A stretch of DNA of 32,000 bases, taken from assembly GCA_963675725.2 (NCBI GenBank), contig CAXXXZ010000002.1, forward strand, positions 1,839,459-1,871,458, given 5' to 3'. This stretch comes from Desulfobacterales bacterium (GTDB lineage Bacteria; Desulfobacterota; Desulfobacteria; Desulfobacterales; JAFDDL01). Every line of letters starts with the position of its first letter. The first letter of the stretch is position 1. Position numbers and translations under genes: made by a program. This document shows positions 3,245 to 28,823 of the stretch, piece by piece. Under the pieces are notes generated by a model that searched no databases, had not been told where the DNA came from, and saw only the letters and a program-made list of their open reading frames with translations.

Positions 3245-5489
3245 AATGGGTTCCGGGTAAAGGCACCGGTTACCCGGCGCCCTCCCCACAGACCCGGACG
3301 TGCAGTTTTCCCGCATCCGGTTCCTCGATTCAGGCCCTTTTTACCGAGCCGTCAACCAATCAGGCGACACCCCGATTGGCGCATAACTTTGCTGCCCTGC
3401 AAGTGTTCAGATATTATGAACTATCCGGGGGAGCGGCAGGGGAAAGGTCTTGAGAATGCGATTGAACTTCTCGCAACTTATATACCCATCCCTATGGCGC
3501 CGTCCGAGCCAGCGTCTCCATGCTTTTCCTGCGAACTCGTACACCACCTCCAGCACCTTATAGTTTCCCCGCACCCCAAAGTATTGGTAATACCCCCGAA
3601 GTTTGCTGCATAGCATTTCATGCTGCTCTTTCAGGGGGTCATGCCGATTTTCTTTGCACCAATTCCACAACATCCGCATAAAGCGGTTTCGCCGTTTCCG
3701 GGCGGTTTGCTTCTTTATCACCCAGTTGCCCTTAAGGCTTTTACCCCAGTAAAAGGTAAACCCGAGAAAATCAAAGGTTCCTTTCGGCTTCCCGCTCCGT
3801 GGTGGCTTTCCGAATGGAATCAACCGGGTCTTTTCCGGATGAAGGTCTAATTTGAAACGGTTGAATCGTTTCGGTAATGCTTCCATTAATCTCTTAGCGT
3901 CCGACTCCAGTTGAAACCCCATAATGAAATCATCTGCAAATCGAATTAGGAAACACTTGCCCTTCAAACGTGGTCCGACCTCCTTGACGTACCAGTCGTC
4001 CAACACGTAGTGCAGAAAAACGTTACTGAGCGTCGGCGAAATAACCCCACCTTGGGGAGTACCCTTCTCAGGATAGATGACCTCACCGCCTTCAGCTACA
4101 CCGGCGTTCAACCACTTGCCGATAAGCCGAATAATGCCGCCGTCATTCACCCTGATTCGGATTATATCCCGCAGCAGGTTACGATCAATATTGTCAAATA
4201 ATCCTGTAATATCAGCGCTCAAGATCCAGTTGATGTTCAGATTTCGGCATTTCTCACGAAGTTCGTGGATTGCCATATGCTGGCTGTGGCCGGGACGAAA
4301 CCCATGCGAAAAATCATGGAATATCGGTTCATAGACCACACCCAATAGGATCGCCACCGCCTTTTGAACTATCTTGTCTTCCAGGGCAGTAATCCCTATG
4401 GGGCGCTTTTTACCGTCTTCCTTATCCAGCCAAATGCGCTTCACCGGGGAAGCAACGTACTGACCTCTGCACAGCCGTTGATATAGATTATAGAGGTTTT
4501 CGTCAAGATCCACGGCGTACTGCTTTGCCGTCACCTTGTCTACACCGGTGGACTCATTCTTGTGCAGTTTGCGGAATGACTTTCTCAACAGGGATAAATC
4601 GATCCTGTGCGCCAGAGACGTAAACACCAAACGCGGGTCCGCCTCTGCCAGCATCTTGACCCGGACGAGCGAAGACTCACCTACCAATAGCGGTGGATTG
4701 TCCTTTACGTCACGGTTTGAACAACTCCTGGAATCGCACGCATCCTGCGACGCAATTCCCTGGTTTTTCGTTGATATGGTTTGTGATTTCTGTGTATCTC
4801 CCATAGTTCCTTCCAGAGAAACGTTATACCCTGCTTCACCTTCCCTACAGTGGGTCGCTTGGGCGAAACTTCCCCACCTTCCCGTCCCGGTTTCCCCGAA
4901 CATCGGTACTATGATCCACTAAGACTTCCGAATGCCTATCTTGGGGTTGTTCGTTTGTCACTCCGCCCCCAATACCTTGTATCACCTCTCTGCGTTCGTC
5001 AATTCTCTCGAACTCTCTGCACAGCGGAGGTTGTCTGTTGCAGAGCCGGGAGTTTTACTCTTTGGACGGTTTCTCCCAACCGTGTCGTACAAGGAAGCAT
5101 TCGGATCTCCCCAGTTCCCGAGTTACCCCCTTGAGCACATGCCCTGGTCTCAGACCCCGGTGGTGTCCTATTCGCTCGCCATAACGCTCACAGGACTTCT
5201 GCCTTCCACTCACTTCACAGTGTCGGCTTTCTCTTCCTTAGTATCAGGACGATTATCCTATCGGTCCACAACTATACATATTTCGGGGCTCAATGCAGGG
5301 CCTACGCCCTTGCTCCGTCCGGCTCCAGACGCCCGTTACCGGGTTTGCCTGCGGACCTCGCTACTGAGCTGGTGGCTAACCTTTGCTCAGATGGGACTTT
5401 CTCATTTTGAGATCACCCATTGGGTAACAATATCGTATTTCTTCTACCTTTCGGTAAAATCCCAACGACTCGGGCTTCGCTGGGCGCGA
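3245..5489 (-). mobile_element. Group II intron 1 (ORF-containing, atypical hallmarks)
   Basis: RT/maturase ORF in domain IV. Domain V-like hairpin at 3291-3323 (gaaccggaugcgggaaaacugcacguccggguc). Borders (+/-1-2 nt) come from comparison with an unoccupied paralogous site at 2054-2084 (junction 2076|2077). The 5' end aligns with the GUGCGCCCAG type but reads UCGCGCCCAG. Confidence 0.75.
3407..4903 (-). CDS. Group II intron reverse transcriptase/maturase (no En domain seen)
   Basis: RT blocks (RPIGITALEDKIVQ, TPQGGVISPTLSN, IRFADDF) and a maturase X tail (LRGYYQYFGV). The true start may be an internal Met (~4804). Confidence 0.9.
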   Translation of the reverse strand: MFGETGTGRWGSFAQATHCREGEAGYNVSLEGTMGDTQKSQTISTKNQGIASQDACDSRSCSNRDVKDNPPLLVGESSLVRVKMLAEADPRLVFTSLAHRIDLSLLRKSFRKLHKNESTGVDKVTAKQYAVDLDENLYNLYQRLCRGQYVASPVKRIWLDKEDGKKRPIGITALEDKIVQKAVAILLGVVYEPIFHDFSHGFRPGHSQHMAIHELREKCRNLNINWILSADITGLFDNIDRNLLRDIIRIRVNDGGIIRLIGKWLNAGVAEGGEVIYPEKGTPQGGVISPTLSNVFLHYVLDDWYVKEVGPRLKGKCFLIRFADDFIMGFQLESDAKRLMEALPKRFNRFKLDLHPEKTRLIPFGKPPRSGKPKGTFDFLGFTFYWGKSLKGNWVIKKQTARKRRNRFMRMLWNWCKENRHDPLKEQHEMLCSKLRGYYQYFGVRGNYKVLEVVYEFAGKAWRRWLGRRHRDGYISCEKFNRILKTFPLPLPRIVHNI

Positions 5490-5590: not shown

Positions 5591-5610
5591 TCCTTTCAAG
5601 AATGAAGACC
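5591..5610 (+). repeat. 20-bp terminal box (copy 3, diverged)
   Basis: Sequence tcctttcaagaatgaagacc, preceded by cacggcagttattcacagttcactgg. Confidence 0.65.
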
Positions 5611-7006: not shown

Positions 7007-8116
7007 TCACCGTTTTTTAAGCGCCTGCTCATAAACCTTTATGGTCTGCGCTGCAATTTTTTCCCAATTGTATTTTTCTTTTATCCGGCTGATAAAATCG
7101 TTTTTCTCCCCATCTGAAATCCCAACCTCAAGAAGCCGCTCCATTTTCTCTTTCAAATCTTCGACATCCCCGCATGTAAAATACCGATCTTTCCTGAGCC
7201 CCACCTCAAGGTTTGCGGGAATATCAGAAACGAGCACCGAGCGCCCGTAGCCCATGGCCTCAAGCAAAGCGATCGGGAGCCCTTCATGAAACGACGGCAT
7301 GACAAACAGCCTGGCATGGGAAAAAAGCTGATGTAAAGGTTCGCCGGTAATATACCCCGTCCGGATGATATTATCATCGGAATCAATCATCGCCTTTAGC
7401 TGTTTGCTGTAGGTTGTTTCATACTCAGAGTCACCCACAACGACTAATTTAAATTTTGTATTGCATTGCTGAAAAGCGCGAACGAGAAGCTCAAGACCTT
7501 TTTCTGGGACAAATCGCGCAACCGTTAGTACATATGAATCGGGTTCGAGATCAACTGAGTCTAAAAATGACCGCCCCTTATGCTTATTGGGAATGGCAGC
7601 CCCATTATAAATTACCGTTGCAGGTTTTTTATACTTTGTAAGGACAAGGTTCTCGATTGTTTTTGAGATTACAATCATTTCATTTGCAAAGAGACAACCC
7701 AGGTATTCGCCGATTTGGAGAAATAATTTTGAAAGCTTTCCCCACTTCTTTTTTTCATAATCCGGGCCATGGTGGGTGAAGATGACCGTTAAGCCCATTA
7801 TCCTTGCTACGGGAACTAATAAGGCAGGCCCAACCGCATGGATGTGAACCATATCCGCTTTTAACAGCTTCGCTTTTATGATGGATAGGAAGGTATGAAA
7901 TATTGTCTCAAGGTGTAAACTCGAAGGGGCAAAGGTGTTAATGATATTAACCCCCTTCCAGTTGCTTTGCTTCACCTTACAATATTTATTTCGAACTGAA
8001 ATAACGATTTCAAAATCTGAATTTTTCGATAGGTTTGCGTAAAGGTGTTGGCAGTGTGTCTCAATACCACCAGGAACATACGGAATCCCTCTCGTTCCGG
8101 TAACGAAAATTTTCAT
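7007..8116 (-). CDS. Glycosyltransferase (GT4-type with DUF1972-like N-terminus), copy 1
   Basis: 369 aa. MKIFVTGTRGIPYVPGGIETH at the N-terminus and an EGLPIALLEAM (E-x7-E region) in the C-terminal domain. About nine-tenths identical by eye to 19122-20231. Confidence 0.85.
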   Translation of the reverse strand: MKIFVTGTRGIPYVPGGIETHCQHLYANLSKNSDFEIVISVRNKYCKVKQSNWKGVNIINTFAPSSLHLETIFHTFLSIIKAKLLKADMVHIHAVGPALLVPVARIMGLTVIFTHHGPDYEKKKWGKLSKLFLQIGEYLGCLFANEMIVISKTIENLVLTKYKKPATVIYNGAAIPNKHKGRSFLDSVDLEPDSYVLTVARFVPEKGLELLVRAFQQCNTKFKLVVVGDSEYETTYSKQLKAMIDSDDNIIRTGYITGEPLHQLFSHARLFVMPSFHEGLPIALLEAMGYGRSVLVSDIPANLEVGLRKDRYFTCGDVEDLKEKMERLLEVGISDGEKNDFISRIKEKYNWEKIAAQTIKVYEQALKKR

Positions 8117-10093: not shown

Positions 10094-10195
10094 TGATGAA
10101 CCTTCTTACACCTTTGATAACTCATTATTTTTTAGTGCGTAAAGTCGAGTAGACCGGCTTCTTCTATGATGACAACACGTTAACACCCAGTCTTT

Positions 10196-12129
10196 TATTG
10201 ACGCCTTGCCGCACGCGGCTACTACGTGGCTGCCGTTTTCGCCTTGCCTTCACCGTTGTCACCGGCCCCTCTCAGAACCGTGCTTGCGCTATTTACGCAC
10301 ACGGCTCCTCACACGGTCAATTCACCGAGAAGCCAAACATGCTGACCCTGATCCGTGGTTTCGGTAAAGGAAATCGCTTCAGCATTTCATTGAACCTTTC
10401 CCAATTGAGACTGTTTCTCTTCCCCCTACGGTTCAGCCACTTAAACAGCAGCTTTTTCACTTCCCATTCAAACCGCACGATTCCGCGCAGATTGTCGGTT
10501 ACACCGTAGTAGTTATAATGACCTCTCAATTTGGCTTTTACGATTTCCCAAAGCTCCTTGGTCTTCATGGTCCTGGCCTTCATCAGCCATTCCTTGAAGA
10601 TCTTGAGCTTGGCAGTAAACTTCTTGCGGGCTGTCACCCGTTTCATCCGAAACCCTTTGCCATCCTTTCTTGTTCCGCAATAATGAGTCAGGCCCAGAAA
10701 GTCAAATGTTTCGGCCCTTGTCCCTCTTCTTTTGGCATTCTGGATGGCAAACCTCCCAAACTCCATCACTTTGGTCTTGGTCGACTCCACCTCAAGCCCG
10801 AACTTGCCCAGCCGTTTCCCGAGTTCTTCGCGAAACCGTTCCGCGTCCGGCTTGTACTGAAAGCAGACAACGAAATCATCGGCATACCGGATTATCCGGG
10901 CATAGCCCATACAGCTCTTGCGGTAAACCTTCTCAAACCACAGATCAAGGGCATAATGCAGATAGATGTTTGCCAGTAGTGGCGAAATGACCCCACCTTG
11001 CGGTGTGCCCTCGTCACTGACTGTTACACTCCCATCCTCCGCCACCCCTGCCCTGAGGAAACGCTTCACCATGCGTTGAATTCTCTTGTCCTCAACCCGG
11101 TGTGCCAGAAATTTCATCAGCCATCCCTGGTTCACATTATCAAAGAAGCCTTTAATGTCAGCCTCGACAATGTGGTTTACCGGATTGTTCTCCACCGCCT
11201 CGCTCAGTGCCCTGAGTGCTTTATGGCAGCTTCGCGATGGTCGGAACCCGTAGGAATCTTCTATGAAATCCTGCTCGTACACGGATTCCAGTATTCGAAC
11301 AAGGCCTGCCTGGACAAGTTTGTCTTCAAAACTCGGTATCCCCAAGGGACGTTGTTTGGTGCTGCCCGGCTTTGGAATATATTTTCGCCGGACAGGTTGC
11401 GGTTTGTACGCCATCCGGTGCAACCGACCTGTCAGGTCTGACAGATTGGCCTCCAGATTCTCGGCGTACATATCTTTGGTCATTTTGTCGATGCCGGCGG
11501 CTGCATCCTTCCTCAGCCGCTTAAAGCATCCCCGTAACAGCTCCTCATTCATCAGATGATACAGACTGGTGAACTTGAATCTCGGCTCCTTACGGGCCTT
11601 CTCTGCTATGCGGTGCAGTTTCGTTACCACCGGTCCCCCACTTCTGCGAATGGCCGATGTTTCCTCACTCCGCGCTCCCATGTGTAGCCTCCTTCCCTCC
11701 AGCAGCATTACCCGCCTTCACTGGTACTATGAGGCTATCCGACTCCCTGTGCCTCATTTGCCTTCCTCCCTCTTCAGTTGTCCGGCATACTCTCTCAAAT
11801 TCGAGAGAGACACAGGGCCTCCCGGGTTGCCGTGTAATCATAATGTCAGACATGCCATGGTCTCTGACCCCGGGGAAGCAGCCGTCACCTTGCCTTTAGC
11901 GGTGATGTCTGTGTTGACTTCCAGTCCTTGAACAATGTCGTCCTTCCCATCGCGTCAATTACGGGGCTCAGTCCCTTCAACCTTCCGGCTTACGGCCTAT
12001 CTGCTCGCTATCCTACGCTTAAAGCTCTATGTTACCATACAGCCTCCAAGGACTCGCTACCCGGTGGCTGGCCTGCCTTCCGGGACGGGCTTCTCACCCG
12101 CTGGACTACTCGACCTTGCCCGGCCGCAC
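10196..12129 (-). mobile_element. Group II intron 2 (~1.93 kb, class C-like size)
   Basis: The 5' end GUGCGGCCGGG starts at 12129, directly after the vapC stop codon. Canonical domain V at 10274-10306 (gagccgugugcguaaauagcgcaagcacgguuc). The 3' end is approximate (+/-5 nt). Confidence 0.8.
10317..11708 (-). CDS. Group II intron reverse transcriptase/maturase (no En domain seen)
   Basis: RPLGIPSFEDKLVQ, TPQGGVISPLLANIYL, IRYADDFVV and the maturase motif LRGHYNYYGV. Confidence 0.9.
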   Translation of the reverse strand: MLLEGRRLHMGARSEETSAIRRSGGPVVTKLHRIAEKARKEPRFKFTSLYHLMNEELLRGCFKRLRKDAAAGIDKMTKDMYAENLEANLSDLTGRLHRMAYKPQPVRRKYIPKPGSTKQRPLGIPSFEDKLVQAGLVRILESVYEQDFIEDSYGFRPSRSCHKALRALSEAVENNPVNHIVEADIKGFFDNVNQGWLMKFLAHRVEDKRIQRMVKRFLRAGVAEDGSVTVSDEGTPQGGVISPLLANIYLHYALDLWFEKVYRKSCMGYARIIRYADDFVVCFQYKPDAERFREELGKRLGKFGLEVESTKTKVMEFGRFAIQNAKRRGTRAETFDFLGLTHYCGTRKDGKGFRMKRVTARKKFTAKLKIFKEWLMKARTMKTKELWEIVKAKLRGHYNYYGVTDNLRGIVRFEWEVKKLLFKWLNRRGKRNSLNWERFNEMLKRFPLPKPRIRVSMFGFSVN

Positions 12130-13745: not shown

Positions 13746-14061
13746 AGATTGGCAGTTCCGAATCGATGATATCATCGAAGCAATAGAGAAAATCGAGCGA
13801 TATACCAAAAATCTCGATTTTGATTTATGGTGTCAGGATGAAAAAACCGTTGATGCCGTCATTCGCAATATCGAAATTATTGGTGAGGCATCTGCGCACT
13901 TACCCGATGAAGTTTATAAACAATTCAATGATGTGCCTTGGCACATGATGAGGGCCATCCGGAATATACTGATTCATGAATATTTTGGAGTGGATTTAGA
14001 AATTATTTGGAAAACGGTCAAGGAAGACCTACCGGATTTAAAAAAACGGTTGTTAAAATAA
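13735..14061 (+). CDS. HepT/DUF86 HEPN-domain toxin
   Basis: RNILIHEYFGVD contains the Rx4H HEPN motif. 108 aa, overlapping the MNT gene by 11 nt. Confidence 0.85.
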   Translation: MPSRDWQFRIDDIIEAIEKIERYTKNLDFDLWCQDEKTVDAVIRNIEIIGEASAHLPDEVYKQFNDVPWHMMRAIRNILIHEYFGVDLEIIWKTVKEDLPDLKKRLLK

Positions 14062-14264
14062 CATTTTTTTCTTTGTTCATTCAAAATTCATAATTCAAAA
14101 TTGTACTCAATCGCTCTCACGCCTCACGGTCGTCTTAATCTCATCACTCATCACTCATTACTCATCACTTTTCCTCTGTCCTCCGACCTCTGACTTCCGC
14201 TCTCACGACTTACGCCTTACGGTCGTTCGGTCCTCCGATCTCTGACTTCTGATCTCTGTCTTTC

Positions 14265-14284
14265 TTTTGTCAAGATTCAAGACC
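14265..14284 (+). repeat. 20-bp terminal box (copy 5)
   Basis: Sequence ttttgtcaagattcaagacc, followed by tga as in copies 4 and 7. Confidence 0.75.
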
Positions 14285-14319
14285 TGATATTCATATAAAG
14301 GTCGAAGGGAAATTGGCCG

Positions 14320-14637
14320 TTTTAATGGGGAACGCTGTCCCCCAAACCCCCTGGGATTTACCGCTTTATGGGCTTCCAGATGGGAATGCTAATAGATGCC
14401 ACCAACACGCTGATGGCCCCCCCATCTGTATAGCCGCCTGCAATGGCGCTCGGGTCGCTTCCCAGCGTTGCCCTATCCTCCATACAGGTAAGTGGATTAT
14501 GTCAGCCAGGGTGCTTATATCAAGCACGAAAAACGGTTGATTCTACAATAAAAAAGTGACACCTCCCTAACCATAGCGGGAAACTATGGTACCAGTGCGC
14601 ATGGCGCAACAACGTTGATGGTTTTAGGAGGTGTCAA
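14320..14637 (+). ncRNA. Structured 5' non-coding region of IS110-family element (bridge-RNA candidate / leader)
   Basis: Nested stems: ggggaacgctg (14327-14337) with cagcgttgccc (14463-14473); cagatggg (14377-14384) with cccatctg (14421-14428); accatag/ctatggt (14570-14590). In addition, tgacacctcc (14557-14566) pairs perfectly with ggaggtgtca (14627-14636) and covers the RBS. Confidence 0.4.
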
Positions 14638-15657
14638 ATGAAAACATACGCAGGAATCGATCTTCATTCAAGCAATAGTTTTATCGGGATTATCGACGAA
14701 GATGACAAACGGCTATTTAAAAAACGACTGCCAAACAAAATGGATGATATTTTGACGGCACTCTCACCATTCAAAGAGACCATGGATGGGGTCGTAGTTG
14801 AATCCACCTACAATTGGTATTGGCTTGTAGACGGGCTTCAAGAAGAGGGGTACAAAGTCCACTTGGCAAACCCTTCAGCCATGAAGCAATATGAGGGGTT
14901 GAAGCATACCGACGATCAATCGGATGCCTTCTGGCTCGCCCACATGGAAAGACTTAATATTCTCCCCACAGGATACATCTATCCAAAAGAGGATCGGCAC
15001 GTTCGAGACCTTCTCAGACGACGGCTACTATTCGTCAGGCACCGGACTGCACACATTCTGAGTTTTCAAAGTATGATGACCCGCAATCTTGGTTATAAGA
15101 TCTCGAACAATGATATCAAGAAACTCAAGGAAGAGAACGCCGCAGACCTTTTTGAATCACCAAACCTGGTTGCCATGGCGCAAAACAGCATTAGCACCAT
15201 TGAGTTTTTAAAGCATGTGATCAAGGGCATTGAAAAGACGGTGGCTTCCCAGGTCAAAATGCGCAAGGAGTTTGAAATGCTGCTGACAACCCCAGGCATT
15301 GGTATGATCCTTGGCTTGACCATCATGCTTGAAGTCGGAGATATCAGTCGTTTCCATTCAGTCGGTAACTACTCCTCATACTGCCGATGTGTTGGAAGTA
15401 AAAAAACTTCCAACGGGAAGAAAAAGGGAGAGAACAATAAAAGAAACGGAAACAAGTATTTGGCCTGGGCCTATGTGGAAGCCGCGAATTTTGCAGCACG
15501 ATATTGCAAATCCGCCCAGAGATTTTATCAGCGAAAGATGGCCGAGAAAAACGGAATCGTTGCGACAAAGGCGCTCAGCAATAAAATATGCCGAGCGTCT
15601 TACTATATGATGCGGGATCATGCACCGTTCGATGAAAGCAATCTTTTCCGATCATAA
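14638..15657 (+). CDS. IS110-family transposase/recombinase
   Basis: 339 aa. N-terminal AGIDLHS.. (DEDD RuvC-like domain) and C-terminal TTPGIGMILGLTIMLEVGDISRF (Transposase_20-type HhH). Confidence 0.85.
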   Translation: MKTYAGIDLHSSNSFIGIIDEDDKRLFKKRLPNKMDDILTALSPFKETMDGVVVESTYNWYWLVDGLQEEGYKVHLANPSAMKQYEGLKHTDDQSDAFWLAHMERLNILPTGYIYPKEDRHVRDLLRRRLLFVRHRTAHILSFQSMMTRNLGYKISNNDIKKLKEENAADLFESPNLVAMAQNSISTIEFLKHVIKGIEKTVASQVKMRKEFEMLLTTPGIGMILGLTIMLEVGDISRFHSVGNYSSYCRCVGSKKTSNGKKKGENNKRNGNKYLAWAYVEAANFAARYCKSAQRFYQRKMAEKNGIVATKALSNKICRASYYMMRDHAPFDESNLFRS

Positions 15658-15661
15658 TCTT

Positions 15662-15959
15662 GGGTGTTTGGGGGAACCGGACAAGGGGTTGGCATCAACC
15701 ATGAGGTTTGATTGGAAGCCCAAACACCCGACTCAAATAAGGATCATAGAATGCAATAGAAAAACCAAACAGTTTGGATGCGGCGGTTAACCAGTAACGG
15801 GGTTGGCATCAACCATAAGATCTGATTGGAAACTGCCGCATCCATCCAATGGAGAAAGAATGCAGTAATAACTTGGTTCGCCCATGCTGTGAGCCGTTAC
15901 GGGGCTGGTTAACAACCACAAGATTTGTAACAAATATCAATTGGACACGGTATGGAACC
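15662..15959 (+). ncRNA. Three tandem hairpin modules downstream of IS110-family transposase (bridge-RNA candidate)
   Basis: Module A: stem gggtgtttggg/cccaaacaccc (15662-15729). Module B: stem tggatgcggc/gccgcatcca (15775-15844). Module C is weaker (15875-15959). The stems are unrelated in sequence, but the loops share ggggttggcatcaaccatRagRtYtgattggaa. Confidence 0.4.
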
Positions 15960-16221
15960 GACGAATTTCTGGGGCCTGAAAGGGCCAGGGGCAGTGCGTT
16001 AAGCTGTGGGCCTAACGCACCTGAAATGCCTTGATCCGGATGGGTGACTGGTGCGGATCTTAAATGACCGTTAACCGCAAAGAAGAAGCAACGGGTGCAA
16101 ACCGGTATTACAGCAGAAATCTCCGTAAGAAATTTAGGTCAAGTGAAAAAGAATATTTTTTACACGGGGAGGTGTTTTTTCTCTTGACCGGACCTTTAAT
16201 GGGTGACACCCTTGTTTTAAC

Positions 16222-16440
16222 TCTGTACAAATCGTGAACTGTGAATAGTGAACGACTGGTAACTGTTTAAATGTTGAAAGCGTCCCCACGATTGTTAAAA
16301 TCCGTGAGGGCGTAAGTCGTTAGTCGTAAGGGGTGGGCGTTGCTGTTCCGCTCTCTCGCCCTAACGCTCTCCCGCCTTCCGGTCGTTACATCGTCCGTCG
16401 GTTTTTACTGTTCACCCATCACTGATCACAGATCACCGCA
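16222..16440. repeat. Palindromic mosaic block P1
   Basis: The left arm has inverted motif classes (gtgaactgtgaatagtgaac; cgtgagggcgtaagtcgttagtcgtaagg). The right arm has forward classes (ccctaacgctctcccgccttccggtcgtta; ctgttcacccatcactgatcac). The core 16273-16355 is conserved with 29583-29656. Confidence 0.6.
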
Positions 16441-16513
16441 GTCATTCGCCCCTCTGTCTTTCAGTTTAGCCGTAAATTCAAAATTGAACCACTTTCGTCC
16501 ATGGCTAATTTTA

Positions 16514-16542
16514 TTGACATAACTATCAAGTATTGTTATCAT
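16514..16542 (+). promoter_or_regulatory. Sigma70-like promoter of Phd-PIN unit
   Basis: TTGACA, 17 nt, TATCAT. Confidence 0.5.
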
Positions 16543-16584
16543 TTTAATAAATATGAATGCATTAAACAATTAGAGAGGTAAGGA

Positions 16585-16818
16585 ATGCCGCATCAAATAT
16601 CTGAAACAAACCTAAAAGAGGATATATATAAATTGCTGCATGATGTTGCTCAGACGGGTAGGCCTGTTCAAATAGAGTTTGGGGGCAAACACCTTGTCAT
16701 CAAGCCTTCCGGGAAAAAAAGCCTTGATTGCTTGGAAAATCATTCGGATTATATTGTTGGAAATCCAGATGACCTTGTTCATGTTGATTGGTCTACAGAA
16801 TGGAAAACTGAACTGTGA
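16585..16818 (+). CDS. Phd/YefM-like antitoxin
   Basis: 77 aa with RBS gagaggtaagg. ..LLHDVAQTGRPVQIEFGGKHLVIKP resembles a Phd/YefM core. Overlaps the downstream PIN gene by 4 nt. Confidence 0.55.
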   Translation: MPHQISETNLKEDIYKLLHDVAQTGRPVQIEFGGKHLVIKPSGKKSLDCLENHSDYIVGNPDDLVHVDWSTEWKTEL

Positions 16819-18758: not shown

Positions 18759-18778
18759 TTCTGTCAATATTCAAGACC
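18759..18778 (+). repeat. 20-bp terminal box (copy 7)
   Basis: Sequence ttctgtcaatattcaagacc, followed by tga. Confidence 0.75.
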
Positions 18779-18916
18779 TGACACTCTTGCCTTTATTCGT
18801 GATCTTCGTGATCTCTGTGGTGAATTGTTTTTCAGCCATGAAACTATTTCGAAAGGACCAGCTCATGAGCCTTCCTGGTTCTTTTCAATGAAGTGCAATT
18901 TTAAACCCACCAACTG

Positions 18917-19121: not shown

Positions 19122-20231
19122 TCACCGTTTTTTAAGCGCCTGCTCATAAACCTCAATTGTCTGCTCCGCAATTTTTTCCCAATTGTATTTTTCTTTTATC
19201 TGGGTGATAAAATCGGTTTTCTCCCCATCTGAAATCCCAACCTCAAGAAGCTGCGCCATCTCCTCCTTTAAATCTTCGACATCCCCGCATTTAAAATACC
19301 GCTCTTTCCTGAGCCCCACCTCAAGGTTTGCGGGAATATCTGAAACAAGCACCGATAGCCCATAGCTCATGGCTTCTAACAGCGCGATCGGAAGCCCTTC
19401 GTGAAACGACGGCATGACGAACAGCCTGGCATGGGAAAAAAGCTGATTCAGAGGTTCGCCGGTGATATAGCCTGTTCGAATAATATTATCATTGGAATCA
19501 ATCATCGCCTTTAGCTGTTTGCTGTAACCTGTTTCATACTCAGAATCACCCACAACGACTAATTTGAATTTTGAATTACATCGCTGAAAAACCCGAACAA
19601 GAAGCTCAAGGCCTTTTTCCGGGACAAACCGCGCAACCGTTAGTACATATGAATCGGGTTCGATAGCAACTGAGTCCAAAAACGACCGCCCCTTATGCTG
19701 ATTGGGGATGGCAGCCCCGTTATAGATGACCGTTGCAGGCTTTTTATACTTTGCAAGGACAAGGTTCTCGATTGTTTTTGAAATCACAATAATTTCATTT
19801 GCAAAGAGGCAACCCAGGTATTCGCCGATTTGGAGAAATAATTTTGAAAGTTTTCCCCACTTCTTTTTTTCATAATCCGGGCCATGATGGGTGAAGATGA
19901 CCGTTAAGCCCATTATCCTTGCTAAGGGAACCAATAGGGCAGGCCCGACAGCATGGATGTGAACCATATCCGCGTTTAATAGTTTCGCCTTTATGATGGA
20001 TAGGAAGGTATGGAATATCGTTTCAAGGTGTAAATTCGAAGGGGCGAAAGTGTTGATGATATTAACCCCCTTCCAGCTGTTTTGCTTCACCTTACAATAT
20101 TTTTTTCTGACTGAAATAACGATATCAAAATCTGAATTTTTCGCTATGTATGGATAAAGATGTTGGCAATGGGTCTCAATCCCACCAGGTACATACGGAA
20201 TTCCCCTCGTTCCGGTAACGAAAATTTTCAT
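19122..20231 (-). CDS. Glycosyltransferase (GT4-type with DUF1972-like N-terminus), copy 2
   Basis: 369 aa and collinear with 7007-8116. The flanks are also duplicated (about 19032-20300 vs 6872-8190). Confidence 0.85.
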   Translation of the reverse strand: MKIFVTGTRGIPYVPGGIETHCQHLYPYIAKNSDFDIVISVRKKYCKVKQNSWKGVNIINTFAPSNLHLETIFHTFLSIIKAKLLNADMVHIHAVGPALLVPLARIMGLTVIFTHHGPDYEKKKWGKLSKLFLQIGEYLGCLFANEIIVISKTIENLVLAKYKKPATVIYNGAAIPNQHKGRSFLDSVAIEPDSYVLTVARFVPEKGLELLVRVFQRCNSKFKLVVVGDSEYETGYSKQLKAMIDSNDNIIRTGYITGEPLNQLFSHARLFVMPSFHEGLPIALLEAMSYGLSVLVSDIPANLEVGLRKERYFKCGDVEDLKEEMAQLLEVGISDGEKTDFITQIKEKYNWEKIAEQTIEVYEQALKKR

Positions 20232-26231: not shown

Positions 26232-26612
26232 ATGATCAAGAAAAAAATCCTTGACCCACAGCGCATCCGTCGCATCAGCGGCGGCTTCAGCTTCATCCCG
26301 CATCGATTCCTTACTGGCGGATTTGTATCGTCCTTGGCGCCTGAAGAGCTACTTCTGTATTTTTTTCTGGTGATGGCGGGAGATAAAAACGGGCTTTCCT
26401 ACTACAGCTACGACACGATCTGCAGCCTTCTTAAGATGCCTCTGGAGACGTATCTTCAGGCCCGGAATGCGTTAATCAAATACGACCTTCTCGCCTTTGA
26501 CGGCACGATCTTTCAGGTGCTTGATCTTCCCGATACGGCCCCTGCAACAAAGCCTTGCAGCTCAAACATTAATGGGCTGATCGGCAGCATGCTGAAGGGG
26601 GCGTCGGTATGA
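26232..26612 (+). CDS. Hypothetical protein (possible winged-helix DNA-binding) inside IS21-family element
   Basis: 126 aa with RBS aaaggggg. Its stop overlaps the istA ATG (ATGA), suggesting translational coupling. The winged-helix guess rests on pattern only. Confidence 0.5.
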   Translation: MIKKKILDPQRIRRISGGFSFIPHRFLTGGFVSSLAPEELLLYFFLVMAGDKNGLSYYSYDTICSLLKMPLETYLQARNALIKYDLLAFDGTIFQVLDLPDTAPATKPCSSNINGLIGSMLKGASV

Positions 26613-28093
26613 TAGGCAGCGAACTTCTTTTTGAAATCACCCGCCTGAAGAGCGCGGGGTGGTCCGATCGCAAGATTGCACGTCACCTCGGATGTGATCG
26701 GGCCACCGTCAAAAAATATGTGGAAAACCCATACCAAGAATTTAAAAAGCCGCCGCCCAGGCAGTCAAAACTTTCTGCCTATCGCCACCTGATCCACCAG
26801 TGGTTCAAAGAGGACCCGGAGGTTAAGGCTACTGTGGTGCTGCAACGGCTTTCTGAAAAAGGGTTTACCGGCAAGATCACCATTGTGCGGGATTTGCTTA
26901 GGGAGCTTCGGGGCCGACGGAAATATCGTCAAGCGTATATCCGCTTCGAGTCTGGACCCGGCAAGCAGATGCAGATCGACTGGGGGCATTTTGGCTCGCT
27001 GGCATACGGCGGGACAACCAGAAAGCTCTATGCCCTGGCGGTATTGGAAGCCCACAGCCGCATGCTGTATGTAGAATTCACCCACAGTCAGAAACAGCAG
27101 ACGCTGCACCGATGTCTTCTGAATGCCTTTTTGTTCTTTGGCGGCACTCCTCGTGAGATAGTGGTGGACAACATGCTCACGGCCGTCACCGAGCGCCAAG
27201 GGTCGGTGATTCGATTTAATGATGCGTTTCTGGATTTTTTGCGTATCTTCGCCATCCGACCAATTGCCTGCAATCCCGGCGCGCCCCATGAAAAGGGAAA
27301 GGTGGAGGCGGCTATCAAATATATACGTCGGAACTTCTGGCCCCTGAGATCTTTCGCTGATCTCGCCGATGTAAACCATCAGGTCCGCCAGTGGCTTGAT
27401 GCGGTTGCCAATGTGCGGCTTCACCAGAGCACCGGAAAACCGCCGCTGGAGCGTTTTGAAAAAGATAGCCTTCAGCGGCTTCCGGAACTTTTGCCGGACT
27501 GCCGGGAAGTATATCAGCTCAAGGTGCACAAGGATTTTGCGGTTCGCTTCGACGGCAATAGCTACAGCGTTCCGCCCTGGAGTATTGGCAAAAAGCTTAC
27601 CTTGAAAGCCGATGCCTGCAGCGTAACGCTGTATCACCGGGAGAAGAAAATCGCCGTTCACACCCGGTGTTGGCAGCGCTACCAACGAATTGAGACAGAA
27701 GCCCACGGACAGCAGGTAAAAAGACTCCAAAGAAGGCTGTGGCATGACCGCGAGGTCGCAGCCTTTGCTTCATTGGGGGAAGATGCCCGGCGCTATCTGG
27801 AGGGCATGATCGCTGCGGGCGTTGGTGTCAAAAAAAACGTCGCCAAAATACTTGAACTGAAAAATGAATACGGGGCCGGGGCGATTGTCGCAGCCGTCCA
27901 GAAGGCGCTTTCGTTCAGCGCCTACGGGGCGGATTACATCGAAAATATCCTCTATCAGGAAATAACGCCGTGCAGTCATCATCCGCCGGTTAAGCTGAAA
28001 AATGATGCGCTGAATCGTATCGTGCTCACGCAACCATCACTGTCCGATTATGATGCTCACGTGCTCAAAAAAAAGGGGAAAACCGATGAATGA
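26609..28093 (+). CDS. istA: IS21-family transposase IstA
   Basis: 494 aa. N-terminal HTH (WSDRKIARHLGCDRATVKKY) and a DDE core (QIDWGHF..VVDN..PGAPHEKGKVE). Confidence 0.9.
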   Translation: MIGSELLFEITRLKSAGWSDRKIARHLGCDRATVKKYVENPYQEFKKPPPRQSKLSAYRHLIHQWFKEDPEVKATVVLQRLSEKGFTGKITIVRDLLRELRGRRKYRQAYIRFESGPGKQMQIDWGHFGSLAYGGTTRKLYALAVLEAHSRMLYVEFTHSQKQQTLHRCLLNAFLFFGGTPREIVVDNMLTAVTERQGSVIRFNDAFLDFLRIFAIRPIACNPGAPHEKGKVEAAIKYIRRNFWPLRSFADLADVNHQVRQWLDAVANVRLHQSTGKPPLERFEKDSLQRLPELLPDCREVYQLKVHKDFAVRFDGNSYSVPPWSIGKKLTLKADACSVTLYHREKKIAVHTRCWQRYQRIETEAHGQQVKRLQRRLWHDREVAAFASLGEDARRYLEGMIAAGVGVKKNVAKILELKNEYGAGAIVAAVQKALSFSAYGADYIENILYQEITPCSHHPPVKLKNDALNRIVLTQPSLSDYDAHVLKKKGKTDE

Positions 28094-28823
28094 GCTTATC
28101 GATAAATGCAAAGAGCTCAGGCTCAAAGCCAGTGGGCAGAATATCGTCCAGGTTATTGAGGCGGCCTCGCAAAAAAACTGGACCATCCAGAAAACCATCG
28201 CCCATCTTTTTGACCTGGAATTGGAATACCGACGACTGAATCGCATCGCCTTATACTTTAAAAGATCCAAGCTTACGGAAAAGCTCACCATCGACCAGTT
28301 TGATTTTGGCCACCACCGTTCCCGAAAGGATCAGAAATCGAAAATACTGGACCTGACCTCCCTTACGTTTATGCAACAGAAAAAGGATATCATCTTCATC
28401 GGCAATCCGGGTACCGGCAAATCTTTTTTGGCCAAGTGTATCGCCTATGCGGCGACCCAGGCCGGAAAAAAGGTAATGTTTACCACCGCTATGGACATGA
28501 TTAACCACCTCATCGCGGCTGAAGCGGACCATTCCTTGCTCAAAAAGCTTCAGTTTTATCAATCCCAGGACCTGCTTGTAATCGACGAAATCGGTTATCT
28601 TCCGCTGGGCCGGCAGGGGTCAAACTTGTTCTTCCAGGTCATCAGCCAAAGGCATGATCAACGATCCACGGTGATCACAACCAATCTGCCTTTTGGGCAA
28701 TGGGGGAACATCTTTGACGGCACCACTGTGGCCACCGCGATCGCCGACCGCCTCGTCTATAACTCCCAGGTTCTTATCTTGGAGGGTAAAAGCTATCGAA
28801 AGAGGGAAATCCAGGCTGAATGA
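28086..28823 (+). CDS. istB: IS21-family helper ATPase IstB
   Basis: Walker A GNPGTGKSFLA and Walker B LLVIDEIGY. The ATG at 28086 overlaps the istA stop. Confidence 0.9.
   Translation: MNELIDKCKELRLKASGQNIVQVIEAASQKNWTIQKTIAHLFDLELEYRRLNRIALYFKRSKLTEKLTIDQFDFGHHRSRKDQKSKILDLTSLTFMQQKKDIIFIGNPGTGKSFLAKCIAYAATQAGKKVMFTTAMDMINHLIAAEADHSLLKKLQFYQSQDLLVIDEIGYLPLGRQGSNLFFQVISQRHDQRSTVITTNLPFGQWGNIFDGTTVATAIADRLVYNSQVLILEGKSYRKREIQAE

Follow-up and report, generated by a model that had tools for sequence, protein, structure and literature searches.

The stretch of DNA analysed here, called the window, is 32,000 nucleotides (nt) of a contig (CAXXXZ010000002.1) from a Desulfobacterales bacterium. 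It contains the gene of an IS110-family transposase (recombinase) with long non-coding sequence on both sides. Downstream of this gene lie two tandem hairpin modules, a very short open reading frame (mini-ORF) between them, and a larger branched structure (Table 1). The 339-amino-acid (aa) product matched DEDD_Tnp_IS110 (PF01548, E 2.9e-15; the RuvC-like DEDD domain) in its N-terminal part and Transposase_20 (PF02371, E 8.4e-13) in its C-terminal part, and phmmer matched it by sequence to the structures of the IS621 and ISCro4 recombinases (E ~5e-7). This agreed with the family assignment made in a preceding sequence-only reading of the locus. More than 8,000 homologues were found, mostly in Desulfobacterales-like metagenomes, and an exact-protein look-up of the window transposase returned no record. 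For comparison, 175 loci of transposase relatives (L001-L175) were fetched.

The ends of the insertion sequence (IS) were mapped from copies within single genomes, in which the left junction read N6-TGA-TAATCATATAAAGG... and the right junction ...CTCTTGACC-N8-TAATGGG-TGA. In the window, TGA is present at both junctions (14285-14287 and 16204-16206). The sequence-only reading had placed the element at 14288-16215. Position 14288 is indeed the first base past the TGA core; the right end is at 16203/16206 instead. The ends were fixed, in the way that reading had proposed, by the multi-copy genomes together with an empty site in the window. Joining the two window flanks reconstructed the target as CAAGACC-TGA-CACCCTTG, and the empty paralogue, CAAGACC-TGA-CACTCTTG at 18772-18789, differed from it by one mismatch in 18 nt (0.03 chance matches expected). 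The flank consensus over 74 relatives was yAAGryy-TG-ACCCC, and left flanks in other genomes often read (A/G)AT(C/T)AAG(G/A)(T/C)(T/C). In one clade the right junction was TGC and the left TGA, with the guides described below following, so that the strictly shared core is probably TG.

Several features placed the element in the IS1111 group. Its longer non-coding side is downstream of the transposase gene, 549 nt against 353 nt upstream, as in relatives lacking the left-end insert described below (~400-640 nt downstream against 80-230 nt upstream). Subterminal inverted repeats (7-17 bp being usual for the group) are set back from the tips and covary across relatives (AAAGGCC/GGCCTTT, TAGCAGGC/GCCTGCTA, TAGTAG/CTACTA). 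Insertion is site-specific and oriented, without target duplication beyond the shared core. The element is an ordinary member of this known group, and its basic classification is unchanged. We consider it likely that the whole region is an intact IS1111-group IS, and that a bridge (seek) RNA, cotranscribed with the transposase gene, is encoded in the 549 nt of non-coding sequence at its 3' end.

This 3' end was kept past the transposase stop codon in more than 150 relatives. The region 15767-16210 showed ~70% nt identity directly past the stop in dozens of the fetched loci, and within the first 130 nt past the stop the same module was seen even where protein identity was as low as 52%. Conservation at this position indicated that the modules belong to the IS and not to a host array, an origin the sequence-only reading had asked to be checked in other copies.

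That reading had described two modules with perfect, mutually unrelated closing stems around a shared interior, and both were found where it had placed them. The outer stem of module 1 is GGGTGTTTGGG (15662-15672) with CCCAAACACCC (15719-15729), that of module 2 is TGGATGCGGC (15775-15784) with GCCGCATCCA (15835-15844), and the interior of 58 nt is 76% identical between the two. Sixty homologous modules gave a consensus with an outer stem of 12 bp, an inner helix of 2 bp, which changes from CC/GG to CU/AG, and a hairpin at the apex; compensatory changes were present at 14 of the 16 predicted pairs. A covariance model built from relatives found modules 1 and 2 as its sole matches in the 32-kb window (E ~1e-16 to 1e-19). 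True matches scored 60-90 bits on the plus strand and 14-20 bits on the reverse strand. The compensatory pairs, and high scores confined to the transposase strand, suggested that the unrelated paired stems are ordinary helix covariation in an RNA read in the transposase direction, as expected from the selected RNA structure proposed earlier. The stems would differ because helices drift by compensatory change, and the interiors would be retained because they hold guide and protein-contact positions.

Rfam gave no relevant match to either flank, at the gathering threshold over the window or at E<=10 over 14000-16600 and 14288-14640. The minimum-free-energy fold of the whole 3' end was uninformative by itself. 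A left-end segment complementary to the 5' arm of module 1, CCCCCAAACCCCC (14338-14351), was set aside as probably a coincidence, the segment being invariant while the arm varies.

The internal loop of each module is composed of a 5' strand and a 3' strand, separated by the apical hairpin. In module 1 these are ACAAGGGGT (15681-89), the hairpin at 15690-15701 and TGAGGTT-TG-AT (15702-12); in module 2 they are TAACGGGGT (15795-15803), the hairpin at 15804-15 and TAAGATC-TG-AT (15816-26). For 71 elements whose ends were mapped, the strands were compared with the IS-flanking DNA. Left of the insertion point, the top-strand sequence recurs in the 3' strand (N7-UG-AU): the 7 nt before UGAUUGG matched the left flank at 4.65 of 7 positions, against 2.94 +/- 0.14 after permutation. 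Right of that point, the top strand has its complement in the 5' strand (N4-GGGGU), the reverse complement of which matched the 8 nt past the core at 4.79 of 8 positions, against 3.91 +/- 0.12.

None of the 2,000 permutations reached the observed value on either side, with P-values that are optimistic because the loci are related. Guides and flanks also changed together (GGUGU with flank ACACC, AGGGU with ACCCT, AUUGG with CCAAT). The complementarity to the flanking region that the sequence-only reading had suggested looking for was found on both sides across these elements. From this match of the internal-loop strands to flanking DNA in relatives, modules 1 and 2 are identified, at the level of comparative sequence analysis, as the target-binding loops of a bridge/seek RNA (loops 1 and 2), a part in which covarying fold and guide-flank correspondence come together.

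Past the two loops, a donor-binding multiloop was predicted. Its closing helix (15875-15881/16053-16059) showed 91% pairing and 28 double-change cells, a result that none of 500 shuffles equalled. The weaker third module of the sequence-only reading (15875-15959) is real and of a different kind: its stem, 15881-15891/15946-15955, covaries in 52 sequences. The comparison shows in part that this module, designated module B, is a branch inside the multiloop. What had been taken for three equivalent modules would thus be two copies of a target-binding loop and one branch of the donor-binding part. Module B was also tried as a third target loop and rejected, as its inner strands do not follow individual flanks.

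The multiloop further holds a small hairpin (15973-86) and a variable one (15994-16020). The latter is the gtgcgtta/taacgcac hairpin noted earlier, and its arms change together in relatives. The other hairpin noted with it, gatccg/cggatc (16033-16058), is in the sequence but was 67% paired and without covariation. It was rejected, since its 3' arm pairs instead with 15875-15881 in the covarying long-range helix.

The multiloop contains a copy of the right IS end, GAUGGGUGAC. When the 3' RNA was compared with the donor junction by 7-mers, the sole consistent match was single-stranded GATGGGTGAC at 16039-48. The internal ATGGGTGA was identical to the tip of the right end (RE) in 85 of 115 elements, and in 18 the two changed together (GGTGC, GGATGA, GCGTGA, GAGTGA). 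We interpreted GATGGGTGAC as the left-donor guide, because it equals the RE tip and changes together with it. The 7-mer search for a right-donor guide found nothing consistent. One candidate is the 7-nt segment GAATTTC at 15963-69, before CUGGGG. GAATTTC accompanies left ends with TATTCAT in 7 of 17 cases and left ends with TAATCAT in 1 of 80. GAAUUUC may be a short guide for the left IS end. Donor-binding nucleotides of IS1111 elements often lie in a multiloop (PMC11208160).

Most relatives have one target loop; two were found in 21 of 157 elements. Two loops were also present in 13 further contigs (11 IS variants) of the window clade, at 77-90% aa identity: L001 (77%), L161, L165-L170 and L171-L175 (80-90%). 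L081 (84%) has the same diverged loop 1, and its contig is cut inside that loop, before the loop 2 position. An 80%-identical variant (L162-L164) with a single loop was the sole exception among the close relatives examined. About a dozen more distant relatives are also two-looped, and about 25 relatives in all have the tandem arrangement. The sequence-only reading had called such a 3' region atypical. It is unusual against the published descriptions that we found, but not unique, being common to the clade and to distant relatives.

In the window clade both loops usually scored 62-81 bits; the weakest were loop 2 of L169 (53 bits) and loop 1 of L170 (49 bits). The loop 1 stems differ among clade members by paired changes (GGGTGTTTGGGGG/CCCAAACACCC, GGGTGCTTGGGTG/CCCCAGGCACCC, GGGCGCCGGG/CCCGGCGCCC). 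No description of tandem target loops was found in the papers searched. In PMC11187229 no mention of a tandem or second seekRNA was found, duplication there referring to target-site duplications only.

Loops 1 and 2 carry different guides, and each was compared with the flanks of tandem elements. Loop 1 matched the left flank at at least 6 of 7 positions in 6 of 16 elements (null 0.039 per element; binomial P ~2e-5). Individual loop 1 matches well above chance were 7/7 in L112 and L105 and 6/7 in L161, L169, L001 and L090. Loop 2 matched the right flank at at least 7 of 8 positions in 4 of 13 elements (P ~0.003). Individual loop 2 matches were 8/8 on the right flank CCCCTATG in the L167/L168 variant, 7/8 in L089 and L008, and 7/7 on the left flank of L006.

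Overall, L161, L166, L169, L170, L001 and L174/L175 fitted loop 1 better, and L167/L168 fitted loop 2. L105 was mixed, its left flank equal to loop 1 (7/7) and its right flank to loop 2 (8/8). Flanks that fit loop 1 in some elements and loop 2 in others are as predicted by alternative use of two functional loops. Dual targeting in this manner is graded as no more than probable, because each variant offers one insertion and the sequences are related.

The mini-ORF recurs with the tandem arrangement. Of 23 tandem elements, 22 have between their loops a run resembling a Shine-Dalgarno (SD) sequence, followed by ATG, zero to two codons and a stop, where shuffling predicted 2.25. The same was found in 5 extra relatives. 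Besides the window element, those with the mini-ORF are L001, L003, L006, L008, L010, L089, L090, L102, L105, L107, L111, L112, L143, L150, L160, L161, L165-L167 and L170-L175. Loop 1 always starts 2-25 nt past the transposase stop codon. With loop 1 just past that stop and the mini-ORF before loop 2, every target loop would have a translated stop codon a short way upstream. Such a stop could serve to insulate folding, in processing, or to protect the untranslated RNA.

In the left end, the helix that the sequence-only reading described as sequestering the ribosome-binding site (the anti-SD/SD helix) was supported. Nine pairs are kept in 40 relatives, and it covaries at two positions: in 7 sequences G-C replaces A-U at one pair, and at the closing pair the composition is mixed. 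On the other hand, the nested long-range stems proposed at 14327-14473 were not supported, as relatives without the 5' partner keep the 3' segment in a local hairpin and the local helices are conserved.

The unusual length of the left end is due to an accessory structured insert of 166 nt. It occurs in the left end of the window clade and of L026 (L026:2223-2382). Its core of ~65 nt, more than 90% identical, lies in the right end of three others (L036:4093-4155, L137:3314-3375 and L160:1791-1851). At either end it is always in the transposase orientation. The helices of the insert covary (GGCU/AGCC changing to GACU/AGUC, CCUGCA/UGCAGG to CUCGC/GCGAG), and it terminates in CCUAUCCUCC. A covariance-model search of the left end found no homologue of a target or donor loop in the insert.

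At the right end, AGGTGTTTTTTCTCTTGAC of the terminal hairpin is kept in relatives. The T-tract and TTGACC (16184-89) are conserved 14 nt from the RE tip, and across a circle junction they would face GATATT/GATAAT, giving TTGACC-N15-GATATT. This suggested that a promoter is completed where the RE meets the left end (LE) in a circle, by analogy also with the junction promoters known in the IS1111 family (PMC11187229). A promoter/terminator scan gave hits no more numerous than in shuffled sequence. Two contigs of 1,616 nt from an 80%-identical relative (L163, L164) are circular permutations of the IS with the junction ...TAATGGG-TGA-TATTCAT... (RE-TGA-LE), as would be seen if the samples that were sequenced contained excised circles or tandem dimers.

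Some further observations concern the same end. In 18 of 115 elements (L008, L014, L040, L116, L121 and others) the right junction reads ...AATGGG-CG-A, and the left junction and internal donor guide keep TG; these CG junctions may be a trace of donor/target core mismatches. The RE tip TAATGGGTGA is tandemly repeated 12-21 nt apart at the right junction in several relatives (L168:1785-1812, L110:1609-1637, L113:1592-1620, L026:3926-3954, L153:2227-2257, L016:2622-2650 and L054/L055:3965-3990, the last with TGACCCC only). The RE sequence GGGGAGGTGTTTTTT (16166-16180) resembles the SD region of the transposase gene and is complementary to the left-end anti-SD at 14556-14566. It also forms the T-tract upstream of the -35-like TTGACC, and is kept in most relatives.

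A mechanism may be proposed from these parts. With recombinase dimers bound at a target loop and at the donor multiloop, a circular IS copy (RE-TG-LE) would be brought together with a site yAAGryy-TG-ACCCC. The two target loops, with their different guides, would act as alternatives and give the element two target specificities. The predicted cognate sites are TGAGGTT-TG-ACCCCTTGT for loop 1 and TAAGATC-TG-ACCCCGTTA for loop 2. The anti-SD helix would hold transposase expression down, and the promoter completed at the circle junction would probably raise it.

Our joint reading, offered tentatively, is that two independently programmed target loops and one donor part would provide two specificities and permit retargeting by duplication and divergence. 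Each loop would need a translated stop codon upstream (that of the transposase gene or of the mini-ORF), which would couple folding or processing to translation. In addition, a conserved structured RNA module would move between the left and right ends of the IS.

Several points weigh against the bridge-RNA interpretation or its two-loop form. The support is comparative throughout, and the relatedness of the loci bears on the permutation test as stated above. Of the donor part, a left guide was found; for the right-donor candidate GAATTTC the signal was small (5.14 against 4.93 +/- 0.03 of 7). The inner strands of module B (GGGGC, CAAGATT-TG) resemble target guides at the clade level without tracking the flanks, a feature for which the model does not account. 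Between the window copy and its own guides the fit is only moderate: on the left flank loop 2 matches 5/7 and loop 1 2/7, on the right flank loop 2 matches 5/8 and loop 1 4/8. Wobble-aware pairing was tried for assigning this insertion to one loop and was uninformative, both left guides pairing 7/7 with G-U, because the site is permissive (32% of family guides also pair 7/7 there). A 1-nt insertion in the right flank, invoked to rescue a perfect loop 1 match, was rejected because the empty paralogue has the same CAC(T/C)CTTG. The flank fits of the window copy do not single out either loop as its guide. Finally, one loop is degenerate in some tandem elements: loop 2 of L169 is without TGA (53 bits), loop 1 of L036, L150 and L160 scored 21-37 bits, and loop 1 of L093 is cut. 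This suggested that the duplicates are sometimes dispensable.

These degenerate copies, and a window copy that does not discriminate between the loops, fit a different view of the tandem loops, namely that the element does encode a bridge RNA and the second target loop is a redundant or decaying duplicate, a decoy or a regulator, only one loop directing insertion. We regard this as rather unlikely. Both loops are intact (62-81 bits) in most close relatives, with stems kept by compensatory change; flank matches above chance were found for loop 1 in some elements and for loop 2 in others; and a conserved mini-ORF precedes loop 2.

A further explanation dispenses with guide RNA, the modules acting as folded single-stranded DNA hairpins or repeated protein-binding sites. 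In its favour, subterminal repeats are a feature of IS1111 elements, whose reported targets include structured DNA, for example repetitive extragenic palindromes (REP) and attC (PMC11187229), and the present computations do not distinguish RNA from top-strand single-stranded DNA. Against this, G-U pairs are tolerated on the transposase strand only, as the strand difference in model scores reflects, and the modules lie 360-540 nt inside the element, away from the tips. The loop strands track the flanks in the way published for seek and bridge RNAs, and such RNAs co-purify with IS1111 transposases (PMC11187229). We therefore consider the DNA explanation very improbable. Even less credit is due to a guide RNA in the long 5' flank, as in IS110-type elements, with accessory 3' modules. 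The sequence-only reading had allowed that either flank could encode the guide, and the window's left non-coding end does contain a conserved structured insert. However, most relatives have left ends of 80-220 nt without the insert, the same insert sits in the right end in another clade, the covariance model found no module resembling a target loop in the left end, and a consistent donor match was found only in the 3' region. Loops with guide-flank correspondence likewise occurred only in the 3' flank. This agrees with the rule for IS1111-type elements cited in that reading, that the guide RNA is encoded 3' of the recombinase gene.

Table 1. Features of the IS and of its insertion site, in window coordinates
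Feature	Position	Strand	Details
Whole IS	14285..16206	+	1,919 bp plus one extra 3-nt TGA; ends mapped from multi-copy relatives
Left subterminal inverted repeat TAAAGGTC	14296..14303	+	pairs as DNA with GACCTTTA at 16191-16198
Accessory structured insert, left end, 166 nt	14325..14490	+	most conserved core 14419-14488; no Rfam match
Anti-SD GTGACACCTCC (14556-14566) pairing with SD region GGAGGTGTCA (14627-14636)	14556..14636	+	two small hairpins between
Transposase/recombinase gene, 339 aa	14638..15657	+	Pfam DEDD_Tnp_IS110 and Transposase_20
Predicted target-binding loop 1 (extra copy)	15662..15729	+	covariance-model match 73 bits
Mini-ORF	15739..15759	+	SD-like AAGGA (15739-43), then ATG CAA TAG (15751-59)
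Predicted target-binding loop 2 (canonical position)	15775..15844	+	covariance-model match 82 bits
Predicted donor-binding multiloop	15875..16059	+	RNAalifold (52 sequences) and helix test
Conserved motif CAACGGGTGC (TAACGGGTGC in many relatives)	16089..16098	+	many relatives have it at a corresponding position
Terminal inverted repeat/hairpin GGTCAAGTGAAAAA...TTTTTCTCTTGACC	16137..16189	+	holds T-tract and -35-like TTGACC (16184-89)
Right subterminal repeat GACCTTTA (16191-98), RE tip ATGGG and core TG(A) (16204-06)	16191..16206	+	
Box-end motif	436, 2331, 5595, 10078, 14269, 17753, 18763, 24543, 29832	+	
Unoccupied site paralogue at another box end, GTCAATATTCAAGACC-TGA-CACTCTTG	18763..18789	+	

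The IS sits immediately past GTCAAGATTCAAGACC-TGA, a motif with which a box repeat terminates on its 3' side. This repeat is composite and strand-asymmetric, and lies between small toxin-antitoxin-like cassettes. The box-end motif GTCAAGAWTSAAGACCTGA, the landing site of the IS, occurs 9 times on the plus strand of the window, against 0.03 expected. The box may be attC-like or of another nature, integron attC sites being the known targets of IS1111-type elements that the sequence-only reading had brought up. Two group II introns, with reverse transcriptase ORFs and Rfam intron domains, lie on the minus strand at 3407-5400 and 10144-12093, each with a box-end motif (at 5595 and 10078, respectively) no more than ~50-200 nt away. 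Mobile elements of several kinds may be drawn to the box end.

Box repeats flank each of two paralogous genes for GT4 glycosyltransferases of 369 aa (7007-8116 and 19122-20231, minus strand), which are ~90% identical in nt over the compared 300 nt. An IS21-type istA/istB pair (rve and Mu-transposase C-terminal domain; IstB ATPase) lies at 26609-28823 on the plus strand.

The recombinase is homologous to that of IS621 and the IS110 group (Durrant et al. 2024, PMC11208160; Hiraizumi et al. 2024, PMC11208158). As in the IS621 bridge RNA, there would be a target-binding and a donor-binding part, each reading both strands around a 2-nt core, and two extra 3'-guide nt past the core (here AU in the target loops and AC in the donor guide) match the post-exchange partner, like the handshake guides. 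The present RNA differs in lying in the 3' end and not the 5' end, in its reversed guide order, in a core of TG instead of CT, in the placing of its donor guides inside a multiloop, which Durrant et al. report to be the case for many IS1111 members, and in having two target loops, not one.

ISPpu9 with ssr9 (PMC12288879) is also an IS110-family element with an extra RNA-coding module downstream of the transposase gene and modular variation between copies. There, ssr9 is reported to be dispensable for transposition and self-moving, whereas the extra module here is a target-loop paralogue inside the IS.

A close likeness is to the IS1111 seekRNA elements ISEc11, ISPa11 and ISKpn4 (Siddiquee et al. 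2024, PMC11187229). They share a DEDD transposase of ~339 aa, a longer non-coding region downstream of the transposase gene, subterminal inverted repeats, and insertion at one position in a repeated sequence. Their seekRNA is encoded 3' of the transposase gene, with a ~80-nt RNA module adjoining the transposase stop codon and a longer form extending 3', and its top-strand-pairing segment lies 5' of the bottom-strand-pairing one (PMC11187229), as here. The window element differs in that the ~80-nt target module occurs twice in tandem, with different guides and orthogonal stems, in the mini-ORF between the copies, and in the extra structured insert in the left end.

To our knowledge, all characterised bridge and seek RNAs have one target loop and one donor loop, and their recombinases are being developed as programmable genome-insertion tools. 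The basic system described here is already known; the tandem target loop, the mini-ORF before loop 2 and the structured left-end insert are variants worth following up. If the two-loop reading is true, the duplicated intact target loop shows how such elements broaden or change their target range while the old loop is retained, and the protein tolerates two target loops per transcript. For engineering, the orthogonal stems point to a possible way of designing multiplexed guides, in which the interior stays as it is and the stem is recoded to prevent cross-pairing. A link of translation to guide-RNA biogenesis is a testable idea raised by the mini-ORF that precedes loop 2 and by the start of loop 1 next to the transposase stop codon, and the left-end insert is a candidate for a new structured RNA.

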